This document shows positions 1 through 35,926 of a DNA stretch of 58,104 bases, piece by piece. The position numbers and the translations under genes were made by a program. The notes under the pieces are model-generated. The model saw nothing but the letters and a program-made list of their open reading frames with translations. It searched no databases and was not told where the DNA came from. How positions within the stretch are numbered: the stretch's first letter is position 1; every line of letters starts with the position of its first letter. Source of the stretch: Pseudomonadota bacterium (GTDB lineage Bacteria > Pseudomonadota > Gammaproteobacteria > Burkholderiales > JAJZQI01); assembly GCA_021847305.1 (NCBI GenBank), contig JAJZTZ010000001.1, positions 1-58,104 of the forward strand, in the 5' to 3' direction.

Positions 1-153
1 TAAGGGGCATCACGCCCGTGATGCGGTCTACGGACCCAGTCAGTCGACTGTATTTCCTGAAGTGAGAATCACAAAACCATCTTGGGAGTGAAGCGGAATC
101 GCCGCAGTGGGAAAAACGTGGCCTGCGAAAAATCTAAAAAGGGGTTTTTATAC

Positions 154-225
154 AGCTTGAACGTTTGAATTCAGCGGACGGCAAAAGCGCAGCTTTTGAC
201 GGTCCGCTGGAATGATTTGTTAGCT
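154..225 (-). repeat. attC site 1
   Basis: + strand reads AGCTTGAAC GTTTGAATTCAGCGGACGGC [AAAAGCGCAGCTTTT] GACGGTCCGCTGGAATGATTT GTTAGCT. It is an imperfect hairpin with a bulged G on the right arm. The right box GTTAGCT is complementary to AGCTAAC at 638-644. Confidence 0.75.
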
Positions 226-632
226 TACTCATCCTTGCGCATGGCCTCGGAAATTGGTGAGAAAAATGCAAGTGCAAGAATGGCACCGTCAGTTAAACCT
301 GTGAGAGAACCCACTAGGTTGTCTAATGGGACAGTGATGGCCATACCGCTAAAGGGAACAGAGGCAACGCTTACTACAACAATGGCGAGTAGCAGCCAAC
401 GCCCCCAAGACAAGAACAATAAAAGGCCAATAGAAGAGACAACTTTCCCAAGCCCAATGGATAGGTAAAAGAAGGGGTGTTGTGTCCATGAATGGGAGCC
501 ATACCCGCCCCACGCCAGGAGGTTGGACACTTCCTTGGGGAATGCTCGTGGCGAATAGGGCAAAAAGAACCAAAGCAGGTAGGAAACCAGCGAGGCCAAA
601 ACGAGTAATTGGAATATGCGAGTGCGCGCCAT
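225..632 (-). CDS. Hypothetical small polytopic membrane protein (135 aa), cassette A
   Basis: This is the C-terminal 135 codons of track ORF 225..1121. An ATG at 632 lies 5 nt inside the cassette. The sequence MARTRIFQLLVLASLVSYLLWFF... has 3-4 hydrophobic segments. The rest of the 298-aa ORF crosses two attC sites and is discarded. No clear SD. Confidence 0.55.
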   Translation of the reverse strand: MARTRIFQLLVLASLVSYLLWFFLPYSPRAFPKEVSNLLAWGGYGSHSWTQHPFFYLSIGLGKVVSSIGLLLFLSWGRWLLLAIVVVSVASVPFSGMAITVPLDNLVGSLTGLTDGAILALAFFSPISEAMRKDE

Positions 633-637
633 GTGAA

Positions 638-701
638 AGCTAACGTTTAAGCTCAGGCGCGGCGCGCTTTTGCGCCGTCGCGCTGGAGCGCAGGGTTGGG
701 C
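638..701 (-). repeat. attC site 2
   Basis: AGCTAAC GTTTAAGCTCAGGCGCGGCGCGC TTTT GCGCCGTCGCGCTGGAGCGCAGG GTTGGGC. The two boxes of this site are not complementary to each other, but each matches the box across the adjacent cassette. Confidence 0.8.
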
Positions 702-724
702 GTGAAGACAATCGGAGAGAGAGC

Positions 725-973
725 ATGAAACTTGAACAAGTTGAGGTAAATAAAGAACAACTGAAGCTGGCAGAAGAAGCGCTACGGCGAGCAGGCGCTG
801 AATTAAAAACTGCATGGACACTGCTGAAGCACAATGGGATGGAGCCGACGGCAAAAGAACTGGCAGACACTGTGCTTGATGTGGAAATTTCAGCGGATCA
901 ACTGCGCGAATTTTTGACGCCCAACGTTCAAGGTAACCGGCCTGCCGCGCTTTTTGCGGCAGGTCCGGGTTGA
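725..973 (+). CDS. Hypothetical 82-aa helical protein, cassette B (inverted relative to inferred attC polarity)
   Basis: ATG is preceded by GGAGAGAGAG. The sequence MKLEQVEVNKEQLKLAEEALRRAGAELK... is charged and coiled-coil-like. The ORF ends inside attC 3. The antisense 76-aa ORF is Ser/Leu-rich and looks spurious. Confidence 0.45.
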   Translation: MKLEQVEVNKEQLKLAEEALRRAGAELKTAWTLLKHNGMEPTAKELADTVLDVEISADQLREFLTPNVQGNRPAALFAAGPG

Positions 974-987
974 CCGCAGGGTTGGGC
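919..987 (-). repeat. attC site 3
   Basis: GCCCAAC GTTCAAGGTAACCGGCCTGCCGC GCTTTTT GCGGCAGG-T-CCGG-G-TTGACCGCAGG GTTGGGC. The right arm carries unpaired T and G. Confidence 0.85.
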
Positions 988-993
988 GTCGCG

Positions 994-1398
994 CTACCGA
1001 GAGAGGGCATACCGTAGGCCATAGCCACCAAGAGTGGGTACGAACACGAAGGCCGCTTTTGAGTACCAACGCGCATACCACATGGGCTCGTCGCCAAGCG
1101 AAAACCCGAATTGGATTTCACCGGTTGCTTGAGCGGACCAGTAATCGAGTGCAGGGAAGAAAGCCCAGACTAGACCACCTATCAGAGCTGGAATTACTTG
1201 ACCAAGGGACAACACGTCAAATTTCAGCAGCGCGATACAGACGGCAAGTACTCCTCCAACTCGAAGGAGAACAGAGAGGCTGGTTTCAAAATTGACGTTG
1301 ATTGCGCCGGAAAACTTCCAGACTCCGAGAGCCAGCAGGCCGACGACAACTACTGCGATTACGACAAAAGCGTTTTCATCATTTGAACTGTTGCTCAC
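994..1398 (-). CDS. Hypothetical small membrane protein (134 aa), cassette C
   Basis: A GTG at 1398 is preceded by AAGGAGG with a 7-nt spacer. The ATG used by the ORF track (1437) lies inside the attC 4 core box. The sequence ...AFVVIAVVVVGLLALGVW..., GGVLAVCIALL, ALIGGLVWAFF has several hydrophobic segments. Confidence 0.55.
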   Translation of the reverse strand: MSNSSNDENAFVVIAVVVVGLLALGVWKFSGAINVNFETSLSVLLRVGGVLAVCIALLKFDVLSLGQVIPALIGGLVWAFFPALDYWSAQATGEIQFGFSLGDEPMWYARWYSKAAFVFVPTLGGYGLRYALSR

Positions 1399-1425
1399 TG
1401 CAATGCCTCCTTGGAGAAATGAGAT

Positions 1426-1498
1426 GCCCAACGTCAAAGCTCAGGGGCAGGACAAAAGCGCAGCTTTTGGCCTGTCCCTCTGGAGCGCCGTGTTGGGC
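1426..1498 (-). repeat. attC site 4
   Basis: GCCCAAC GTCAAAGCTCAGGGGCAGGAC [AAAAGCGCAGCTTTT] GGCCTGTCCCTCTGGAGCGCCGT GTTGGGC. The extra bases are on the right arm. Confidence 0.85.
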
Positions 1499-1523
1499 GA
1501 CATTGACTCACCATGTACGCAGC

Positions 1524-1778
1524 TTATTTGATTACAGCTAACCAAGCCGCAACTGCACTTACAAGTGAGGCAACAGCAGAAAATACGGCCACCAGCCAAA
1601 GACGGTGCTCACGCAGGTGCCGTTCAGCTTCCAGTACCCGGCGTTGTAATTCATAGTCATCAGCAATTATCGGCACGTTCCCACGGCCTGGAACGACTAC
1701 CGACTGGTCTGTTTCCATGATGACACCCAATTGCTCAGCTCTTTTTCGTAGCGCATCGCCGACGAGAAGTTTTTTCAT
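1524..1778 (-). CDS. Hypothetical 84-aa tail-anchored protein, second gene of cassette D
   Basis: The ATG lies 2 nt after the stop of the upstream M48 gene. A soluble N-terminal part has a helical stretch (DYELQRRVLEAERHLREHR). A single C-terminal TM segment follows (LWLVAVFSAVASLVSAVAAWLAVI). Confidence 0.6.
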   Translation of the reverse strand: MKKLLVGDALRKRAEQLGVIMETDQSVVVPGRGNVPIIADDYELQRRVLEAERHLREHRLWLVAVFSAVASLVSAVAAWLAVIK

Positions 1779-1780
1779 CT

Positions 1781-3016
1781 CTATTCACCAATCAATTGAA
1801 CATAGACCGGGCGAATGGAAACTGAGCTGTACCGAATTTGCTTCAACGGAATGCCGAATTCCTTCTGTTCGTAGGGCTGCATGGGAGACCATGGAATTTC
1901 ATCTCTCATCAGGACCATCTGACCATTCAGATATTCCAGGGCGACAATAGCATGCGAGATTTGCTTCCCGGAGGTGTTGACCGCAACACCGAATAAACCC
2001 CGCCCCCCACCGCTTGCGTTTGCAACCTGCAACCTTAAAAATTGGAGTCTTTGCGCAGCAAGGCGTTGCTGTTCCAGTTGTTTCGTTTGGCGCTTAAGCT
2101 GTTCCGTCTTGGCTTCCGTTGCCTCTACATAGGAATTTGCAACTGTTTCGAGCAGGGCCGCAAATCCGCCTCCTTCGCCAGCCTTGGCCGTTGAAGGTTT
2201 GCTGTACGAATAAAGGGCATTGTTCGTCAGAAGCTTTTCGTGCTCCGGGTTGATTTCGCCGGGAACAAGATATTGCTGTACCGCAGAAGCGTATTTCACC
2301 ATGTTCTTGGCGCGATCATCGTTGAGCGGGTGATCGAACATCATGTCGCCTGTATAGCTCCCCATCGCTTGGTGCATGCGGTTCCATACCCGGACACCCA
2401 CTGAGGGGTCGTAACCCGCTAAAGCCAAATAAAGGGTGGAGTACTTGTCCGCTTCGGCTTCTTGGTTCGTGGTAAAGCTGGCGTCAAAGCCTTTTTCCTT
2501 TCTCAGCCCTTTGTCGGCGAGCTTGGCAATCGCCAACTTGCCTCCCTTCTCGCTAGCGTGGCGAGCGGACACATGGGCCATTTCATGAGCGAGAACAGCA
2601 GCCAGTTCGCTGTCATCTCTGAGGCCAACTTCGCCCTGAAAAATTCCGGAGAAAACAAACATTTTTCCTCCCCCAATTGTGAAAGCGTTCCATTCTGGAG
2701 AATCCAAAACGTGGACTTCCCAGGGTAGTTGCTTTCTATGCGTCACTGTTTTCAGGCGATTGAATACACGATTGACCCTCTCGTAGTAAGGCGTTTCTCC
2801 GTCAATTTTTATCCCTTTTTGCTTTGCTTGGGACAATATCTGTCGCTGCGCTTCTTCCGCTTGGCGGATTTCTTGCTCCTCAGAGACGAGATTAATCTGA
2901 CGCTGGCCGGTTACAGGGTCACGCGACGAGACGCCATCACTGACTGCCATCATGCCTTTATCGATTGAGGCGCATCCTGTGAGCGCGACGACCAGAACAA
3001 CAGAAAATAGCCGCAT
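1781..3016 (-). CDS. M48-family zinc metalloprotease-like lipoprotein with an uncharacterised C-terminal extension, cassette D
   Basis: The lipoprotein signal MRLFSVVLVVALTGC has lipobox LTGC. The HExxH motif is in LAHEMAHVSARH (His codon at 2585-2587). An SD-like AAGGTGG lies 6 nt before the ATG at 3016. The C-terminal ~150 aa (coiled coil plus beta-rich part) is not recognisable. Confidence 0.8.
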   Translation of the reverse strand: MRLFSVVLVVALTGCASIDKGMMAVSDGVSSRDPVTGQRQINLVSEEQEIRQAEEAQRQILSQAKQKGIKIDGETPYYERVNRVFNRLKTVTHRKQLPWEVHVLDSPEWNAFTIGGGKMFVFSGIFQGEVGLRDDSELAAVLAHEMAHVSARHASEKGGKLAIAKLADKGLRKEKGFDASFTTNQEAEADKYSTLYLALAGYDPSVGVRVWNRMHQAMGSYTGDMMFDHPLNDDRAKNMVKYASAVQQYLVPGEINPEHEKLLTNNALYSYSKPSTAKAGEGGGFAALLETVANSYVEATEAKTEQLKRQTKQLEQQRLAAQRLQFLRLQVANASGGGRGLFGVAVNTSGKQISHAIVALEYLNGQMVLMRDEIPWSPMQPYEQKEFGIPLKQIRYSSVSIRPVYVQLIGE

Positions 3017-3081
3017 GTCGAACCACCTTTCCTTACGTGTCCTGCCCTCAAATATTGCTTGCATAGAACGCCTCTCTTGTC

Positions 3082-3147
3082 GCCCAACGTTTGAATTAAC
3101 CGGCTGGCGCGCTTTTGCGCCAGTCCGGGTTGAATGATGGGTTGGGC
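3082..3147 (-). repeat. attC site 5
   Basis: GCCCAAC GTTTGAATTAACCGGCTGGCGC GCTTTT GCGCCAG-T-CCGG-G-TTGAATGATGG GTTGGGC. Confidence 0.85.
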
Positions 3148-3155
3148 ATAGCCGA

Positions 3156-4091
3156 CTACTCCATAAGCTGCAAAATGCCGAGAGCCTTTCCTGTTAACTC
3201 CCTTGTTGAGTTTGGCGTGATGTTGGAAACCCCAAGGCTTGCAAGGTCAGCCTTCACATCTTTCCAGAGGTAGTAGGTATCGTCAGAAGAGACTTCAAGG
3301 TAAAACCGTGTCCATTTGTCTTGGTCTTGGCGGTGGAGGATGGGAGCAGCTTGATATACATGAACGTATTTTCTGGTACCGCGTTTCTCAGTATATGCCT
3401 CGACAACCAAGTCACCCGGTTTTGCTTCTGATCGGAAGCGGGACTTGCCAGACCAACGAATTGAACGTACCTCATAGCCATCTTTTTCGACGTGCTTTTC
3501 TGCTTCCTCAAGCCCTTGTAGCTCGAATGACTCCTCGGCACTGGTGATTCGTTCGCTAAGCTGGCGCGTTGAAATAAACCACACGCGCGATTCACCAACA
3601 GTTATTTTCTTCTTGCTTTGGCGGCTAAAGCCGGAGGCGCGGACAACTGGCAGTGCTTCTATTCGCTGAAGAAACTCCTCAGTAACTTGGATGGACTCGC
3701 TCTTGACGTTCTCGATGAATCCTTGAACCAAGCCCGCAATTTGAGAGTCGTCTGTGAATAATGAAGCTTCGCAGGTGCCGACACCTGCATTTTCTGAAAG
3801 ATTCGCAGATCCAATTAACGAGTGGTTGTCGATGACGGCCACTTTAGAGTGCAATCCATCGAAGGAATAGAGTTCGGCTCCTTGATCGAAGAATGCTCGC
3901 AGAACTGAGGCCGATGTTAAGCCGCCTTTGATTGCATCATCGGATGCGTCACAGATAAGTAAATCGCCTTGGCGGAAATCAAGGTGTCGCGCTGTCACAT
4001 AAGAAATGGCGGCGCGTATGCGTTTGTGGTTTGCCGATTGCTGAGACAACTCAGCCCACAGGTCATCACTCAGGAGCGTTTTCATAGTCAT
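3156..4091 (-). CDS. Single-HKD phospholipase D-family (Nuc/BfiI-like) nuclease domain fused to an unknown ~170-aa C-terminal domain, cassette E
   Basis: The motif LHSKVAVIDNHSLIGSANLS fits HxK(x)4D(x)5GSxN (nt 3801-3851). The N-terminal ~135 aa resembles PLDc_2. The start is uncertain: TTG at 4103 lies inside the attC core, and ATGs occur at 4091 and 4085. No SD. Confidence 0.8.
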   Translation of the reverse strand: MTMKTLLSDDLWAELSQQSANHKRIRAAISYVTARHLDFRQGDLLICDASDDAIKGGLTSASVLRAFFDQGAELYSFDGLHSKVAVIDNHSLIGSANLSENAGVGTCEASLFTDDSQIAGLVQGFIENVKSESIQVTEEFLQRIEALPVVRASGFSRQSKKKITVGESRVWFISTRQLSERITSAEESFELQGLEEAEKHVEKDGYEVRSIRWSGKSRFRSEAKPGDLVVEAYTEKRGTRKYVHVYQAAPILHRQDQDKWTRFYLEVSSDDTYYLWKDVKADLASLGVSNITPNSTRELTGKALGILQLME

Positions 4092-4097
4092 AGAAAT

Positions 4098-4163
4098 GCC
4101 CAACGTGGAGTTGAGCGAGCGGAGCGCCGCAGGCGCGGAGTCCGCTCGAACGGAGGGTTAGAT
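4098..4163 (-). repeat. attC site 6
   Basis: GCCCAAC GTGGAGTTGAGCGAGCGGAGCGCCGC AGGC GCGGAGTCCGCTCGAACGGAGG GTTAGAT. The boxes are non-complementary within the site. Each matches its neighbour cassette box. Confidence 0.8.
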
Positions 4164-4458
4164 GCTGCACATTTACACAGCGAAGTTTCAATCGGCAACG
4201 GATTACCTTGACCAGTGCGGTGAGGTTGAATTCCGTGGCGGGTTTGAGCCGGAGAAGCTGATTTACGCCGACTGCTGCGGGAAACAACGGCCAGCAAAAG
4301 ACTGTGTTGTGCAGTGCTACTACGATGGCCAGAGCATCTGGTGCGCACCTGAAAAGGGCTGCAAAGACCCGCAAGTGATTGCGGCGAAGAAGGCACGAGA
4401 GTTTGCGAATCGGAGTGCAGGACAAAAGGCTCGATGGGCGAAGGCATCTAACGTTTAG
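4162..4458 (+). CDS. Hypothetical Cys-rich 98-aa protein, cassette F (inverted)
   Basis: The ATG overlaps the GTTAGAT box. Seven Cys fall within ~50 residues (DQCGEV, DCCGK, KDCVVQCYYDGQSIWCAPEKGC), followed by a basic C-terminal tail. The two 119-aa antisense ORFs cross attC 6 and look spurious. Confidence 0.45.
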   Translation: MLHIYTAKFQSATDYLDQCGEVEFRGGFEPEKLIYADCCGKQRPAKDCVVQCYYDGQSIWCAPEKGCKDPQVIAAKKAREFANRSAGQKARWAKASNV

Positions 4459-4509
4459 CTTAAGGGGCGCGCGGCTTTTCGCGCGTCCCGCTTGAAGCGC
4501 CTGTTAGGC
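4446..4509 (-). repeat. attC site 7
   Basis: ATCTAAC GTTTAGCTTAAGGGGCGCGCG GCTTTTC GCGCG-T-CCCGC-TTGAAGCGCCT GTTAGGC. The reverse complement reads GCCTAAC..CTTCAAGCGGGAC...CCCTTAAGCTAAAC GTTAGAT. Confidence 0.85.
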
Positions 4510-4524
4510 GCTATTGGAGGAAAG

Positions 4525-4716
4525 ATGAAACCGAAAGACATTATGTTTTCCGTGAACGAATACGACCGCGATGGTGATTGCACCGACAAGGGTGTATTCC
4601 TCCATTTCGGAGAAACGAAGGTAAAGGCTGCGGACGGCATCAAGGAATTTGCCGAGATCGTGCGCCACTTCGAGGCGATGGTGGAAGAAATTGAAACCAA
4701 CTATGCGGACGCCTAA
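4525..4716 (+). CDS. Hypothetical acidic 63-aa protein, cassette G (inverted)
   Basis: The ATG is preceded by GGAGGAAAG. The sequence is MKPKDIMFSVNEYDRDGDCTDKGVFLHFGETKV... The stop TAA lies inside the GCCTAAC box. The track ORF starts earlier (4492), inside attC 7. Confidence 0.45.
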   Translation: MKPKDIMFSVNEYDRDGDCTDKGVFLHFGETKVKAADGIKEFAEIVRHFEAMVEEIETNYADA

Positions 4717-4760
4717 CGTAAATTAGGCGGCGTTGGAAAAGTGGTGTCACGCCGCCTAAA
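4711..4760 (-). repeat. Degenerate terminal attC-like hairpin (half site)
   Basis: The sequence is GCCTAAC GTAAATTAGGCGGCG [17-nt loop] CGCCGCCTAAATCTA. The inner box is complementary to GTTAGGC at 4503-4509. There is no outer core box and there are no bulged bases. Confidence 0.55.
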
Positions 4761-5025
4761 TCTATTTATTAAATTTATATCCATTAAATAACAATAACTT
4801 AATAATCGCATTTGCTTTTAACCCAACCTAAAAAAATGCGGATGAAAGTTCATGTTCTACATAAACATCCTTGCCCTTCCTGCCATGATATGCGGACATT
4901 TGGATTATGACAAATGATTGGATTTATCACTTATTTTCACTTCAACAAGAGCGTGCCAAAAGACAAAACAGAGCCCGTGGCCTTAGGGTTCTGGTCGCGA
5001 AGGGATAAAACGGACTAACAGGAAT

Positions 5026-5079
5026 GGCGCAAAGCCGAGATACCGCATTAAACGGTATCTTGATGGCTTGCTTTGTGCC
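5026..5079 (-). terminator. Compound hairpin downstream of gltX (putative terminator)
   Basis: The inner stem is AGATACCG/CGGTATCT (5038-5060). The outer stem is GGCGCAAAGC/GCTTTGTGCC. Only a weak U-tract follows on the - strand. Confidence 0.4.
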
Positions 5080-5090
5080 CTAACCGAAGG

Positions 5091-6485
5091 TTAGGAAGCG
5101 GACAGGGCGTTGAGCTGGCGGCGCAGGCGGGTCAGCACTTCATCTTTGCCGATGAGTGCCAGAACGGCATCGATGGAGGGGGTTTGCGGTTCGCCGGTGA
5201 CCAGCACGCGCAGGGGCATGGCCACCTTGGGCAGTTTCAGGCCGTGTTCCGCGACGATGGCTTTCATCACGTCGTGAATGGCTTCGCGGGTCCAGTCGAT
5301 GGCTTCAAAGCGGTCGGCCACTTGTTGCATCACCGGCAGAATGTCTGCACCGACGTGCTGTTCGATGACGGCGGGTTCGGCATCCAGCGGTCGATAGAAA
5401 TACACGGCCGCATCGGCCAGTTCTTCAATGGTGTTGACGCGTTCTTTCAGCAGGTCGATGACCAGCGGCAGGGCCGGGCCATGGCTCGGGTCGCATTCGT
5501 CGCGCAGCAGAAAGGGGCGGACCAGTTCCGACAAACGGTTGCTGTCGGCCTGCTTCAGGTATTGCTGGTTGATCCAGTTGAGCTTTTCCGGGTTGAAGCG
5601 GGACGGAGAGCGGGAGATGCCTTCCAGATTGAACCATTCGGTAAACTGGTCCATGGTAAACACTTCTTCGTCGCCTTTGGCCCAGCCCAGGCGTGCCAGG
5701 TAGTTGAGCAGTGCCTCGGGCAGGTAGCCGTCTTCTTCATACTGCATCACGCTGACCGCGCCGTGGCGCTTTGACAGCTTTTCCCCGTCGTGTCCCAGAA
5801 TCATCGGTACGTGTCCGTACTTGGGCAAGGGGGCGCCGAGCGCCTTGAGGATGTTGATCTGGCGCGGTGTGTTGTTGACGTGGTCGTCGCCGCGAATCAC
5901 GTGGGTGATTTGCATGTCCCAGTCGTCCACCACCACGCAGAAGTTGTAGGTAGGTGAACCGTCCGAGCGGGCAATGATCAGGTCGTCCAGCTCGCTGTTC
6001 TGCACAATGATCTGCCCTTTCACCAGGTCGTCGATGACAACGGCGCCGTCGAGCGGGTTCTTGAAGCGGACAACCGGTGACACGCCGGTCGGGGGCGTGG
6101 CGGTTGAGTCGCGCCAACGACGGTCGTAGCGGGGTTTCTCGCCTTTGGCCATCTGCTCTTCGCGCATGGCATCGAGCTCTTCCTTGCTGGCGTAGCAGTA
6201 ATAGGCTTTGCCTTCGGCCAGCAATTGGTCGATCACTTCCTTGTAGCGATCCATGCGCTTGGTCTGATAGAAAGGACCTTCGTCGTAGTCGAGCCCAAGC
6301 CACTTCATGGCATCGAGAATGACCTGGGTGTTTTCCGGGGTGGAGCGTTCCAGATCGGTGTCTTCAATACGCAGAACAAAGGTACCCTTGTGCCGGCGAG
6401 CGAATGCCCAGGAGAACAGGGCAGTACGGGCGCCGCCCAAGTGCAGATAACCGGTGGGGCTGGGAGCGAAACGGGTGCGGACCAT
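5091..6485 (-). CDS. gltX: Glutamyl-tRNA synthetase
   Basis: 464-aa ORF. The N-terminus [20 protein letters not shown] carries the HIGH-type motif. KLSKR is the KMSKS-type motif. Confidence 0.96.
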
Positions 6486-6645
6486 GGCAGTGAGCTGAGT
6501 GAATCAAAGCCGCTATTTTACGCAATAACTGGCAATGCCGCCATGTTGCAGCCGAGGTAAAGAGGGGGCCAGTGCTGGCAGAAGTGGTTCTAGGTGGGCT
6601 GGGAGCGATCTGCTACCATGCGCCAGCTAGAGCGCTATATTGTTT

Positions 6646-7578
6646 ATGACAACACTGGTTAATACCGCCACACACCGGCAGGATGCATTCTGGGGAATTC
6701 TCTTTTCCCTGTTGGCCGCTATTGGTTTTTCCATCAAGTCCATTCTGGTCAAGCTGGCCTATGTATACGTGGTGGATGCAGTCACCTTGCTGACCCTGCG
6801 GATGGTCTTCTCCGTGCCGTTTTTTCTGATGATCGCCTTCTGGGCTGGGGCCCGCCAGCAGGAGCCGTTGCAAAAACGGAAGTGGCTGGTGATCGGTGCG
6901 CTCGGCTTGGGCTATTACCTGTTCAATTATCTGGATTTTCTCGGCCTGCAGTATGTTTCCGCCGGGCTTGAGCGGCTGATCCAGTTTCTCTACCCGACTT
7001 TGACGGTGGTGCTGGCGGCCTTGCTTTATCGTCGGGCTATCTCCTCCAAGGTGATTGCCGCCATGCTGCTCAGTTACGCCGGTATCGCCATGGTGTTCAT
7101 GCATGATGTGCGGGTCAGCGAGAGTGGAATTGTGCTGGGCGCGTCGCTGGTTTTTGCCAGTACGCTGTTCTACGCGATCTATCTGGTGGGGGCGGGGCAC
7201 TCGATTGCACGCATGGGAACGGTGAGATTCACGGCTTATGCGATGCTGATCGCCAGCACCATCAGCGTGAGTCAGTTTGCCCTGACACACCCGCTGACAG
7301 CGCTGGTGCAACCCGCGCCGGTGTATCAGCTGGCCTTTATGATGGCGATCTTTTCCACCGTTTTGCCGGTATTCCTGTTAACGGCCGGTATCCGCCGGAT
7401 CGGTTCCGGCGAGGCTTCTCTGATCGGCTCGATCGGCCCGGTGTTTACCATTTACCTGGCGCATGTGTTCCTTGATGAGCATGTTTCTGCCTTGCAAATC
7501 GGCGGGTCGCTTCTTGTATTGGTCGGTGTGGTTGCGGTCAGTCTGAGCAGCCGCAGCGATGTTCGGCCGATCAGCTGA
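6646..7578 (+). CDS. EamA/DMT-family transporter
   Basis: ~310 aa with about ten hydrophobic segments in a two-fold arrangement. ATG at 6646 (TTG at 6640 is also possible). Confidence 0.8.
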   Translation: MTTLVNTATHRQDAFWGILFSLLAAIGFSIKSILVKLAYVYVVDAVTLLTLRMVFSVPFFLMIAFWAGARQQEPLQKRKWLVIGALGLGYYLFNYLDFLGLQYVSAGLERLIQFLYPTLTVVLAALLYRRAISSKVIAAMLLSYAGIAMVFMHDVRVSESGIVLGASLVFASTLFYAIYLVGAGHSIARMGTVRFTAYAMLIASTISVSQFALTHPLTALVQPAPVYQLAFMMAIFSTVLPVFLLTAGIRRIGSGEASLIGSIGPVFTIYLAHVFLDEHVSALQIGGSLLVLVGVVAVSLSSRSDVRPIS

Positions 7579-34667: not shown

Positions 34668-35852
34668 ATGCCGGGGTTGCCGCACTCAAGCAATGTAAAA
34701 TCTTCCTTACCCTGTCTGGCAGCCAGGGCCAAGAAGTGTGGCATTACCCTGAGCGAATCCCAATTGACTGCGGCAGGCGAGCTGCGCAGGCTGCAGGAGC
34801 TGTTGCAGCAGCCAACTTTCACCAGCCATTTCCGCTTCATGCGCCGTCTATGGCGCTCCCAGCCCGTCCGTGGCGTGTACCTGTGGGGCGGAGTGGGGCG
34901 TGGCAAAAGTTTTCTGATGGACAGCTTTTTTGCCTGCGTCGAATCACCACACAAAAAACGCGCCCATTTTCACCGCTTCATGCAGGAAATTCATGGCCGG
35001 CTGGAGCGGTTGAAGGGAAAACCCAACCCCCTGCGACTCATTGCGCGTGAAATCGCCGACCACGTTCGTCTGCTTTGTCTGGACGAATTTCATATTACCG
35101 ATATTGCCGATGCCATGTTGATGAAAGGGTTGCTGCAGGGCCTGCTGGACGAGGGAGTAGCCATTGTGGTGACCTCGAACGCGCACCCTGCTTCGCTCTA
35201 TCGCAATGGCTTGCAGCGCAGTCAGTTTCTGCCGACCATCGATTTGCTGGAAAAAAATATGGCAATCATCCATTTCGATGGGGATGAGGACTACAGAATG
35301 CGCAACATTGCCCGGGCAGGCGTTTACCACAGTCCAGTCGATGAAGCATCTGAAGGCGTTCTGGCCGAGCTTTTTAATGATCTTGCCAGAGGCGAAGTGA
35401 AAGAAAGCGGGACACTTGTTGTGGCAGGGCGCCCGATCCCTGTGCGAGGCCATGCCGACGGTCTGGTCTGGTTCAATTTCAAGGAATTGTGCGGTGGACC
35501 CCGTAATCAGGCGGATTACATTGAGCTGGCCAAACGTTTCCATACCATTTTGTTGTCCGGCATTCCGCAATTTGACGCTGGGCTGGAAACCGAGGCGCGC
35601 CGGTTTTTGTGGCTTGTCGATGTGCTGTATGACCACCGGGTACGGCTGGTTCTGACGGCTGCCGCGCCTTTGGCAAGCCTTGCGCCTGCCGGGCTGTTGC
35701 ACGGTGAATTTGAGCGAATCTTGAGCCGGCTGACGGAAATGCAGACGCATGCTTATCTGGCGCAGCCGCATCTGCCTGAACTACCGGCAGAAAAAACCCC
35801 CGGTCAAAGGGGAGAGAAACCGGGGGTTAAAAAAAGCCCTAATAAGGATTAA
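34668..35852 (+). CDS. zapE: AFG1-like ATPase ZapE
   Basis: 394 aa with Walker A GGVGRGKSFLMD and Walker B LLCLDEF. Confidence 0.85.
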   Translation: MPGLPHSSNVKSSLPCLAARAKKCGITLSESQLTAAGELRRLQELLQQPTFTSHFRFMRRLWRSQPVRGVYLWGGVGRGKSFLMDSFFACVESPHKKRAHFHRFMQEIHGRLERLKGKPNPLRLIAREIADHVRLLCLDEFHITDIADAMLMKGLLQGLLDEGVAIVVTSNAHPASLYRNGLQRSQFLPTIDLLEKNMAIIHFDGDEDYRMRNIARAGVYHSPVDEASEGVLAELFNDLARGEVKESGTLVVAGRPIPVRGHADGLVWFNFKELCGGPRNQADYIELAKRFHTILLSGIPQFDAGLETEARRFLWLVDVLYDHRVRLVLTAAAPLASLAPAGLLHGEFERILSRLTEMQTHAYLAQPHLPELPAEKTPGQRGEKPGVKKSPNKD

Positions 35853-35926
35853 GGCGCCCGCTCAGGGAGGAGAAGCGGGAGGCAGTCTCGCAACCACCTA
35901 CTCTTAAGATAGCAAATTAAATTTGA

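Follow-up and report, generated by a model that had tools for sequence, protein, structure and literature searches.

The DNA analysed here (the window) is a stretch of 58,104 nucleotides, positions 1 to 58,104 of contig JAJZTZ010000001.1 (assembly GCA_021847305.1), from a Pseudomonadota bacterium. At its left end, downstream of the glutamyl-tRNA synthetase gene gltX, lies a series of short open reading frames (ORFs) separated by hairpins that we recognize as attC sites, the recombination sites of integron gene cassettes. Table 1 lists seven such sites (s1 to s7), the cassettes that they delimit, and the features on the gltX side. From left to right, the cassettes run from A, which is farthest from the head of the array, to G, which is nearest to it.

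Table 1. The cassette array and its right flank. Positions are those of the window; R1 is the covariance model described in the text; a slash marks the predicted crossover, in + strand coordinates.
Feature	Position	Strand	Description
Partial cassette	1–161	-	Cut by the window edge; own attC beyond position 1; begins (- strand) with the non-canonical core TTCAAG
attC s1	156–225	-	Crossover 161/162; R1 59.9 bits; fold z -4.5; bulged G bases on the + strand 3' arm
Cassette A, 482 bp	162–643	-	ORF for a 135-aa membrane protein (632 to 225), canonical, then attC s1; no family match
attC s2	638–701	-	Crossover 643/644; R1 70.9 bits; bulges T41, G45, G49 on the + strand 3' arm
Cassette B, 281 bp	644–924	-	attC s2 and inverted 82-aa ORF (725–973, +), crossing the boundary into s3
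attC s3	919–987	-	Crossover 924/925; R1 77.4 bits
Cassette C, 507 bp	925–1431	-	ORF for a 134-aa membrane protein (1398 to 994, GTG after AAGGAGG), canonical, then attC s3
attC s4	1426–1498	-	Crossover 1431/1432; R1 79.8 bits
Cassette D, 1656 bp	1432–3087	-	M48 metalloprotease (3064 to 1781), 84-aa membrane protein (1778 to 1524), attC s4; canonical
attC s5	3082–3147	-	Crossover 3087/3088; R1 78.7 bits
Cassette E, 1016 bp	3088–4103	-	311-aa protein (4091 to 3156), then attC s5; canonical
attC s6 (divergent)	4098–4163	-	Crossover 4103/4104; R1 39.2 bits
Cassette F, 348 bp	4104–4451	-	attC s6 and inverted 98-aa Cys-rich ORF (4162–4458, +)
attC s7	4446–4509	-	Crossover 4451/4452; R1 70.2 bits; bulges T41, G45, G49
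Cassette G, 265 bp, first of the array	4452–4716	-	attC s7 and inverted 63-aa ORF (4525–4716, +); no family match
Head site ("site 8")	4711–4770	-	R box GTTAGGC (- strand), TTTAC spacer, perfect 11-bp hairpin (TTAGGCGGCG ... CGCCGCCTAA)
AT-rich non-coding spacer	4771–5090	.	39% GC over 4761–5090; between the array head and the gltX stop
gltX, glutamyl-tRNA synthetase	5091–6485	-	Pfam tRNA-synt_1c; same direction as the array top strand

The hairpins s1–s7 are 64–73 nt long, all seven have the AAC ... GTT triplets, and these same-strand sites are at most 1.6 kb apart. We built a covariance model of them (R1; + strand, hand-checked structure) and searched the window with filters off. R1 matches s1–s7 at 39–80 bits across the 58 kb; it has no other match above 11.2 bits (E = 1) on either strand, and none opposite the sites. 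Within the window, then, the repeats are confined to the array and are not scattered. A strict IUPAC pattern matched five of the sites, versus none in 100 shuffles. When the sites were folded as single-stranded DNA and compared with shuffled sequence, s1, s3, s4, and s5 reached z scores of -4.5 to -5.0 and s6 reached -3.0, with a weaker signal for s2 (-1.8) and s7 (-2.3). In all seven sites the central spacer is unpaired and the + strand 3' arm has extrahelical G, G/T, and T. The region is also poorer in GC (51.7% in 1–4760 versus 58.3% in 5091–58104), a comparison that the first-pass annotation of this DNA had proposed. An Rfam search (at the gathering threshold and at E ≤ 10) matched no attC family, which is uninformative because attC is absent from Rfam.

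The first-pass annotation had listed eight attC palindromes, each bounded by RYYYAAC and GTTRRRY. Seven of these are real and lie where it had put them, with s1 starting at 156, and the consensus fits every box of these seven except the left (CTTGAAC) and right (GTTAGCT) boxes of s1. The eighth, at the head of the array, is a half-site, with ATTTATT in place of GTTRRRY (that is, no second R box) and no bulges. The annotation was correct that the right box of each repeat and the left box of the next are exact reverse complements, which holds for 7/7 pairs with matches of 7–11 nt, and that the two boxes within s2 and within s6 do not match each other; the same is true of s1 and s7. Reading the sequence also bears out its division of the loops into two subtypes.

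R1 gives the polarity of the array. It matches attC_aadA1 of R100/In2 at 39.8 bits (E = 3e-9); the 60-nt attC of aadA-type cassettes is present in 2515 plasmids, and the R100/In2 copy immediately follows aadA1 in the direction of that gene, intI1 being upstream and divergent. R1 also matches two attC sites of one Pseudomonas aeruginosa class 1 integron. A model derived from the sites of the window thus recognizes bona fide attC, which serves as a proxy for hits to a curated attC model. All three class 1 matches are on the strand opposite the cassette genes. Because R1 models the + strand, the + strand of the window is the attC bottom strand, and the cassettes read from right to left. The bulges fit this assignment: in a folded attC bottom strand the extrahelical bases are on the R''-L'' arm (PMC5371416), which corresponds to the + strand 3' arm. 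The bulge asymmetry of s1–s7 is also found in attC_aadA1, whose top strand follows aadA1.

A pattern scan of metagenomes found arrays with up to 9 matches per contig, and six of the pattern-matched contigs encode an IntI1 homologue (46–54% identity). In all six, intI is divergent from the cassettes and located 3' with respect to the pattern strand, and within every locus all of the matches are on a single strand. Overall, in 8/8 calibrating integrons, the integrase is on the side that corresponds to the right of the window. We also considered the + strand as the top strand, in which case each unit would carry the other attC, and rejected this because it is contradicted by the calibration and by the boundaries of shared cassettes. 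The predicted crossover is therefore AA/C of the left boxes in + coordinates (G/TT on the - strand) rather than G/TT of the right boxes in the + reading, as previously annotated, and the predicted head of the array is on the right, on the gltX side. With this polarity, attI and intI are expected to the right of 4716.

The eight predicted crossovers are the seven in Table 1 and 4716/4717. Four independent comparisons, with contig L083 and with copies of cassettes D, F, and C in other loci, agree with them. L083 is 99.98% identical to window positions 160–7000, has another cassette to the left of s1, and departs from the window right at the AAC of s1. Over its full length, cassette D shares 97.7% identity with L223–L226, which are from other samples and have unrelated flanks; the identity starts at G/TTGGGC and ends at G/TT of attC s4 (the R' box on the - strand). 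In L223 (positions 1–900; JGI metagenome 3300023208), this M48 cassette is the first cassette beside a divergent and upstream IntI-like fragment (52% identity to IntI1 residues 35–94, E = 3e-13). Cassette F recurs in the array L219–L222 (79% identity) and in the phage contigs L213–L218 (87%), and the conserved stretch takes in the upstream attC and the ORF and ends at ATCTAA/. Cassette C recurs in L228 at 89% identity, up to its exact end at 1431. Hence, judged by these alignments, at least three cassettes of the window are discrete units in other arrays, one of them beside an intI fragment. Taken together, our analyses show the attC structure, its polarity, and the cassette boundaries to the nucleotide.

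Some details of these loci deserve mention. The alternative cassette of L083 (13933–14229) has an ORF that begins 13 nt after GTTAGCC and a very GC-rich stretch at the contig end; this could be another cassette, or the tip of the contig may be misassembled. The window and L083 have a one-base difference in s1 (C178T). The attI-side sequence of L223 (...CAATCAACTG/TTGGGC) is unrelated to the head site of the window. In L228 (2857–3480), the attC that is attached to the 134-aa ORF is quite different from that in window positions 925–1431, and the cassette adjoins a DUF2062/Na-Pi cotransporter operon via an AT-rich spacer, with no integrase. L228 looks like a second integrase-less head beside housekeeping genes.

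The cargo is largely uncharacterised, yet it is not all orphan, as the first-pass annotation had described it. Pfam recognised only Peptidase_M48 and PLDc_2 among the cassette proteins. The metalloprotease of cassette D matches Peptidase_M48 with E = 6e-20 and has a lipobox (LTGC) if its start is at 3019; its LoiP/BepA-like matches in NCBIfam are below the curated cut-offs. The protein of cassette E has one HKD motif (HSKVAVIDNHSLIGSAN), as in phospholipase D (PLDc_2, E = 9.5e-8), and an uncharacterised C-terminal half; it also has weak matches to DrmC/NucT, far below the curated cut-offs. The 98-aa protein of cassette F belongs to a family of 103 clusters at E ≤ 1e-3, with 46–80% identity, all of which are unnamed; this widespread family is found in phages too. 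PADLOC and NCBIfam gave only weak sub-threshold matches to the cargo, the HKD motif resembling DrmC and a membrane segment ZorA, so we did not label any cassette as a defence gene.

The ORFs are in the canonical orientation in cassettes A, C, D, and E and are inverted in the other three (B, F, and G). Good Shine-Dalgarno sequences precede the inverted ORFs. In cassette B a Shine-Dalgarno-like GGAGA is 7 nt before the ATG; in cassette G a GGAGG precedes the ATG by 4 nt, and GCCTAA contains the TAA stop. In cassette F the bottom-strand spacer and R box of attC s6 (GGAGG GTTAGATG) are themselves the Shine-Dalgarno sequence and the ATG of the 98-aa ORF, whose stop is within the AAC GTT TAG of the neighbouring s7. 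The 3' arm of s6 is conserved together with this ORF in L219 and L213, and the arrangement is kept in the phage copies. We also noticed that in four of the seven attC sites (160–167, 642–649, 3086–3093, and 4450–4458), the left box and spacer read AAC GTT TGA/TAA/TAG, so an inverted ORF that enters in this frame terminates immediately beyond the crossover. Such an attC-borne stop ends the 98-aa ORF, and the 82-aa ORF of cassette B meets GTT CAA in s3 and continues to 973.

The phage-like relatives of cassette F are L213 (5690–6347) and L214–L218, which carry DnaB, NinB, YbcO, RNA ligase, and DNA methylases, and encode a 110-aa homologue of the 98-aa cassette protein (74% amino acid identity). 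In L213 we found three attC-like sites on the same strand, with R1 scores of 38.4, 21.3, and 19.5 bits; two of these flank the homologue and the third is upstream of an adjacent gene for a 95-aa zinc-binding protein. Loci of this type resemble cassettes lodged within the early region of a phage. They recall the attC sites and cassettes described from phages (PMC9892861), a likeness that concerns these related loci and not the window itself.

At the head of the array, the sequence reads GCCTAAC GTAAAT and then the hairpin. R1 scores this site at 8.4 bits and matches its left part only. Like a simple site, it combines an R box with an inverted L box, and it is similar to the attI junctions of the calibrating environmental integrons, which read ...AAC GTTAAAT or ...AAC GTAAAGT and then palindromes or repeats. 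The head site could be an attI-like simple site (an attI of the past or of the present) or an attC that has decayed. We also considered a rho-independent terminator, which we rejected: the loop is 15–17 nt, the T-tract is poor, and a terminator scan missed it. Two independent Logan unitigs, L090 and L091, end inside the loop of the head hairpin, at 4742–4743, which may be a break in coverage or a site of variation.

To the right of the head are 374 bp of AT-rich DNA and then gltX. A promoter-like site on the - strand (4913 to 4885, TTGTCA-17-TATCAT) points into the array; chance alone would give 3.7 such matches in the region scanned, so a single match is not significant as a count. By BLAST against all of the loci that we fetched, including the regions downstream of gltX in relatives, 4717–5090 has only chance matches of 20–25 nt. 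When we searched the whole 58-kb window with IntI1 (tblastn), nothing was below E = 5, and there was no IntI remnant in 4717–5090; in other loci this query readily picked up homologues of IntI. The 53 kb to the right of the array thus have no intI by this search, and we found no other tyrosine recombinase in the window. A check for integration sites found no tRNA or tmRNA gene in the window.

By GltX, the best relatives are metagenome-assembled genomes of Sulfurimicrobium and Sulfuricella, at 75–84% amino acid identity. GltX is 84% identical to that of a Sulfurimicrobium genome of this kind and 63–82% identical to those of other Sulfuricellaceae, Nitrosomonas, and Thiobacillus. R1 had no match at E < 0.1 around gltX in any of 80 related genomes, and the genes downstream of gltX vary among these loci. 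The region is therefore not conserved or syntenic in relatives, and the array is lineage-specific. The scan of the genome collection with GltX did not recover an empty site, the best relative being 84% identical.

The + strand has a GC skew of +0.064 over 5091–58104 and is positive in 47 of 53 1-kb windows. Judging by this skew rather than by a located replication origin, the + strand is probably the leading strand, which would make the attC bottom strands part of the lagging-strand template. Large sedentary integrons, in contrast, carry theirs on the leading-strand template (PMC5371416, PMC11023631). The lagging-strand-template orientation is recombination-prone, and experimentally it leads to selection for integrase loss (PMC5371416, PMC11023631), so the apparent orientation fits an array without an integrase.

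We propose that positions 1–4716 are very probably the integrase-proximal part of a chromosomal cassette array, downstream of gltX in a Sulfuricellaceae-like betaproteobacterium, and that this array is a CALIN, or cluster of attC sites lacking an integron-integrase (IntegronFinder; Cury et al. 2016, PMC4889954; Néron et al. 2022). The criterion for a CALIN is at least two same-strand attC sites within 4 kb of each other, with no intI within 4 kb. The array has seven same-strand sites and no intI to the right, and the region left of position 1 is outside the window. As no intI was found at the head or in the window, we class the element as a CALIN. Like other CALINs, it is chromosomal, its same-strand attC sites are spaced by under 4 kb, it has no intI or intI pseudogene nearby, and its cargo is mostly unknown. 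Unlike them, it is larger than the average (about 5 attC sites; PMC4889954), with its full length cut by the window edge, and it shows both a distinct site at the head, with an R box and hairpin, and inverted ORFs in 3/7 cassettes. CALINs are common: a survey of 21,105 genomes counted 2961 of them (bioRxiv 10.1101/2022.09.11.507474).

The sites themselves resemble class 1 attC (attC_aadA1 of In2/R100) in the arrangement RYYYAAC ... GTTRRRY, in the unpaired spacer of 5–6 nt, in their length (about 60–73 nt), and in having an L box with a bulged G (CTTGAAC in the class 1 site and TGGA, TTGA, or TCGA in the window). They differ in having a regular ladder in which three 3-bp stems alternate with three bulges (G, then G/T, then T), GC-rich stems, and a TTTT or GCA loop; otherwise the primary sequences are unrelated.

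How might the array work? Each unit is a gene cassette with one or two ORFs and one attC. When single-stranded, the + strand folds so that the R boxes (AAC/GTT) pair, the spacer stays unpaired, and 2–3 G or T bases bulge from the 3' arm. Such hairpins would be bound by an integron integrase, which would cleave the left box between its A and its C (G/TT on the - strand), and cassettes would be excised as circles and reinserted at the head of the array. We suggest that the array is now mostly a static store, to be reshuffled only if an integrase is supplied in trans. Transcription of the four canonical cassettes may come from gltX read-through or start at the promoter-like site (4913 to 4885). 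The three inverted cassettes would have to use their own signals, and cassette F has its Shine-Dalgarno sequence and start codon in its own attC.

Several points weigh against this reading. The window begins 155 nt left of s1, so the far end of the array is outside it, and a rearranged or non-canonical integrase could lie beyond the left edge. The head site might be a working attI for an integrase elsewhere in the genome, which would make the array half of a split integron rather than a dead end. The assignment of attC sites rests on a reciprocal model, R1, and the absence of intI rests on tblastn with IntI1. Similarly, the covariation counts that support the hairpin structure (over 102 distinct aligned sites, standard pairs in 90.7% of pair cells versus 24–55% with the partner slid, and 202 compensatory cells versus 76 ± 6 in shuffles) come from an alignment that was fitted to R1 itself, which inflates them towards the structure. 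And three inverted cassettes of seven is more than expected for an integron array.

A variant of the CALIN reading, rather than a competitor to it, is that there never was a local integrase: a foreign integrase would have seeded the cassettes at a secondary site (attG, GWT) downstream of gltX, and the hairpin of site 8 would be native chromosome. We view this variant as possible but tentative. Cassette insertion outside of att sites is documented, as are the CALINs and SALINs (the latter being single attC sites that lack an integron-integrase) that result (Loot et al., bioRxiv 10.1101/2022.09.11.507474). Like those genome-inserted cassettes, the array is outside a complete integron, adjoins a housekeeping gene, and shows no transposase or intI remnant. 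Also, 95% of CALINs have no intI pseudogene nearby (PMC4889954), no IntI remnant was found in 4717–5090, and in L228 an AT-rich spacer joins cassette C to a housekeeping gene, again with no integrase. However, the array is a multi-cassette array, not a single cassette, and at least seven cassettes is large for the attG route: 1362 of the 2961 CALINs, the largest reported size class, have two attC sites (bioRxiv 10.1101/2022.09.11.507474). Furthermore, the R box, spacer, and inverted L box of the head resemble a simple site of attI or attC, not random DNA. The insertion site is not reconstructable, and relatives yielded no empty site for comparison.

It seems less probable that the array is still active. 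If it were, then 4711–4770 would be an unusual attI for an integrase elsewhere, the variant junction at s1 and the 97.7%-identical cassette beside intI would reflect ongoing exchange, and the F-type cassette would shuttle between phages and integron arrays.

The implicit model of the first-pass annotation was the distal part of a complete sedentary chromosomal integron, with intI and attI beyond the left edge, and we now consider this quite unlikely. The array does continue off the left edge, its attC sites are alike in length and architecture, and the locus is chromosomal, at the same position in five samples. It also shares with the sedentary integrons of Vibrio, Xanthomonas, and others its small and mostly unknown genes, a GC content below that of the host, and a single polarity. 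However, the + strand behaves as the bottom strand, with the integrase on the opposite side in all eight calibrating integrons; the boundaries of the three shared cassettes agree with a right-hand head; and the right end resembles an array head, with an R box and no full attC. Highly similar attC sites usually accompany long sedentary arrays. In the window the pairwise identity among sites is 41–71%, with a mean of 55%, which is low for a large sedentary integron, so the earlier argument from homogeneous sites loses its support. Such similarity is not part of the published classification, in which sedentary integrons have >19 attC sites or occur at 100% frequency in a species (PMC4889954). For comparison, the array has at least 7 sites and no demonstrated intI or attI, the contigs that carry it are essentially of one strain, and it is absent near gltX in 80 related species.

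A chimera of metagenomic assembly at the junction of the array and gltX is very unlikely. Contigs do tend to end inside the array, and there is one variant junction at s1 (L083). But contigs from five independent samples (ERZ27237461, ERZ27237159, ERZ27236955, SRR28285719, and SRR13221995; essentially one strain) reproduce the junction, along with the order of cassettes between gltX and s1, at 99.96–100% identity, and the attC sites are shorter than the k of 141 that is suggested by the ENA contig names (k141_...). Extending the array leftward to count cassettes, as had been proposed, succeeded only in part: in public assemblies every long contig is from this same strain and ends within about 300 nt of s1, and only L083 reaches further, by 297 nt, into a different cassette.

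Finally, repetitive extragenic palindromes, bacterial interspersed mosaic elements, or terminators between small genes, which the first-pass annotation had rightly set aside in favour of independently captured cassettes, can be dismissed: the hairpins are GC-rich, lie between ORFs, and in some cases score as terminator-like, but R1 finds no copies in the other 53 kb (5091–58104) and detects genuine class 1 attC sites, the complementarity of the boxes spans intervals rather than single sites, and whole units recur elsewhere with breaks at G/TT.

The array adds a documented example to the Sulfuricellaceae/Nitrosomonadales group of Betaproteobacteria. The wider biology of integron cassettes, CALINs, and phage-borne cassettes is established, and our result confirms it rather than being a surprise. 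Polarity and boundaries can be fixed from sequence comparison alone, whereas a reading without tools misplaces every boundary by the length of one attC, which matters for counting and annotating cassettes. Two small leads are the inverted cassettes with translation signals inside attC and the cassette shared with phages.

Elsewhere in the window, the anti-hemB small RNA of Burkholderia (Rfam RF02837) matches 35789–35882 on the - strand at 69.3 bits (E = 3.5e-14), which is the sole Rfam match above the gathering threshold in the window.

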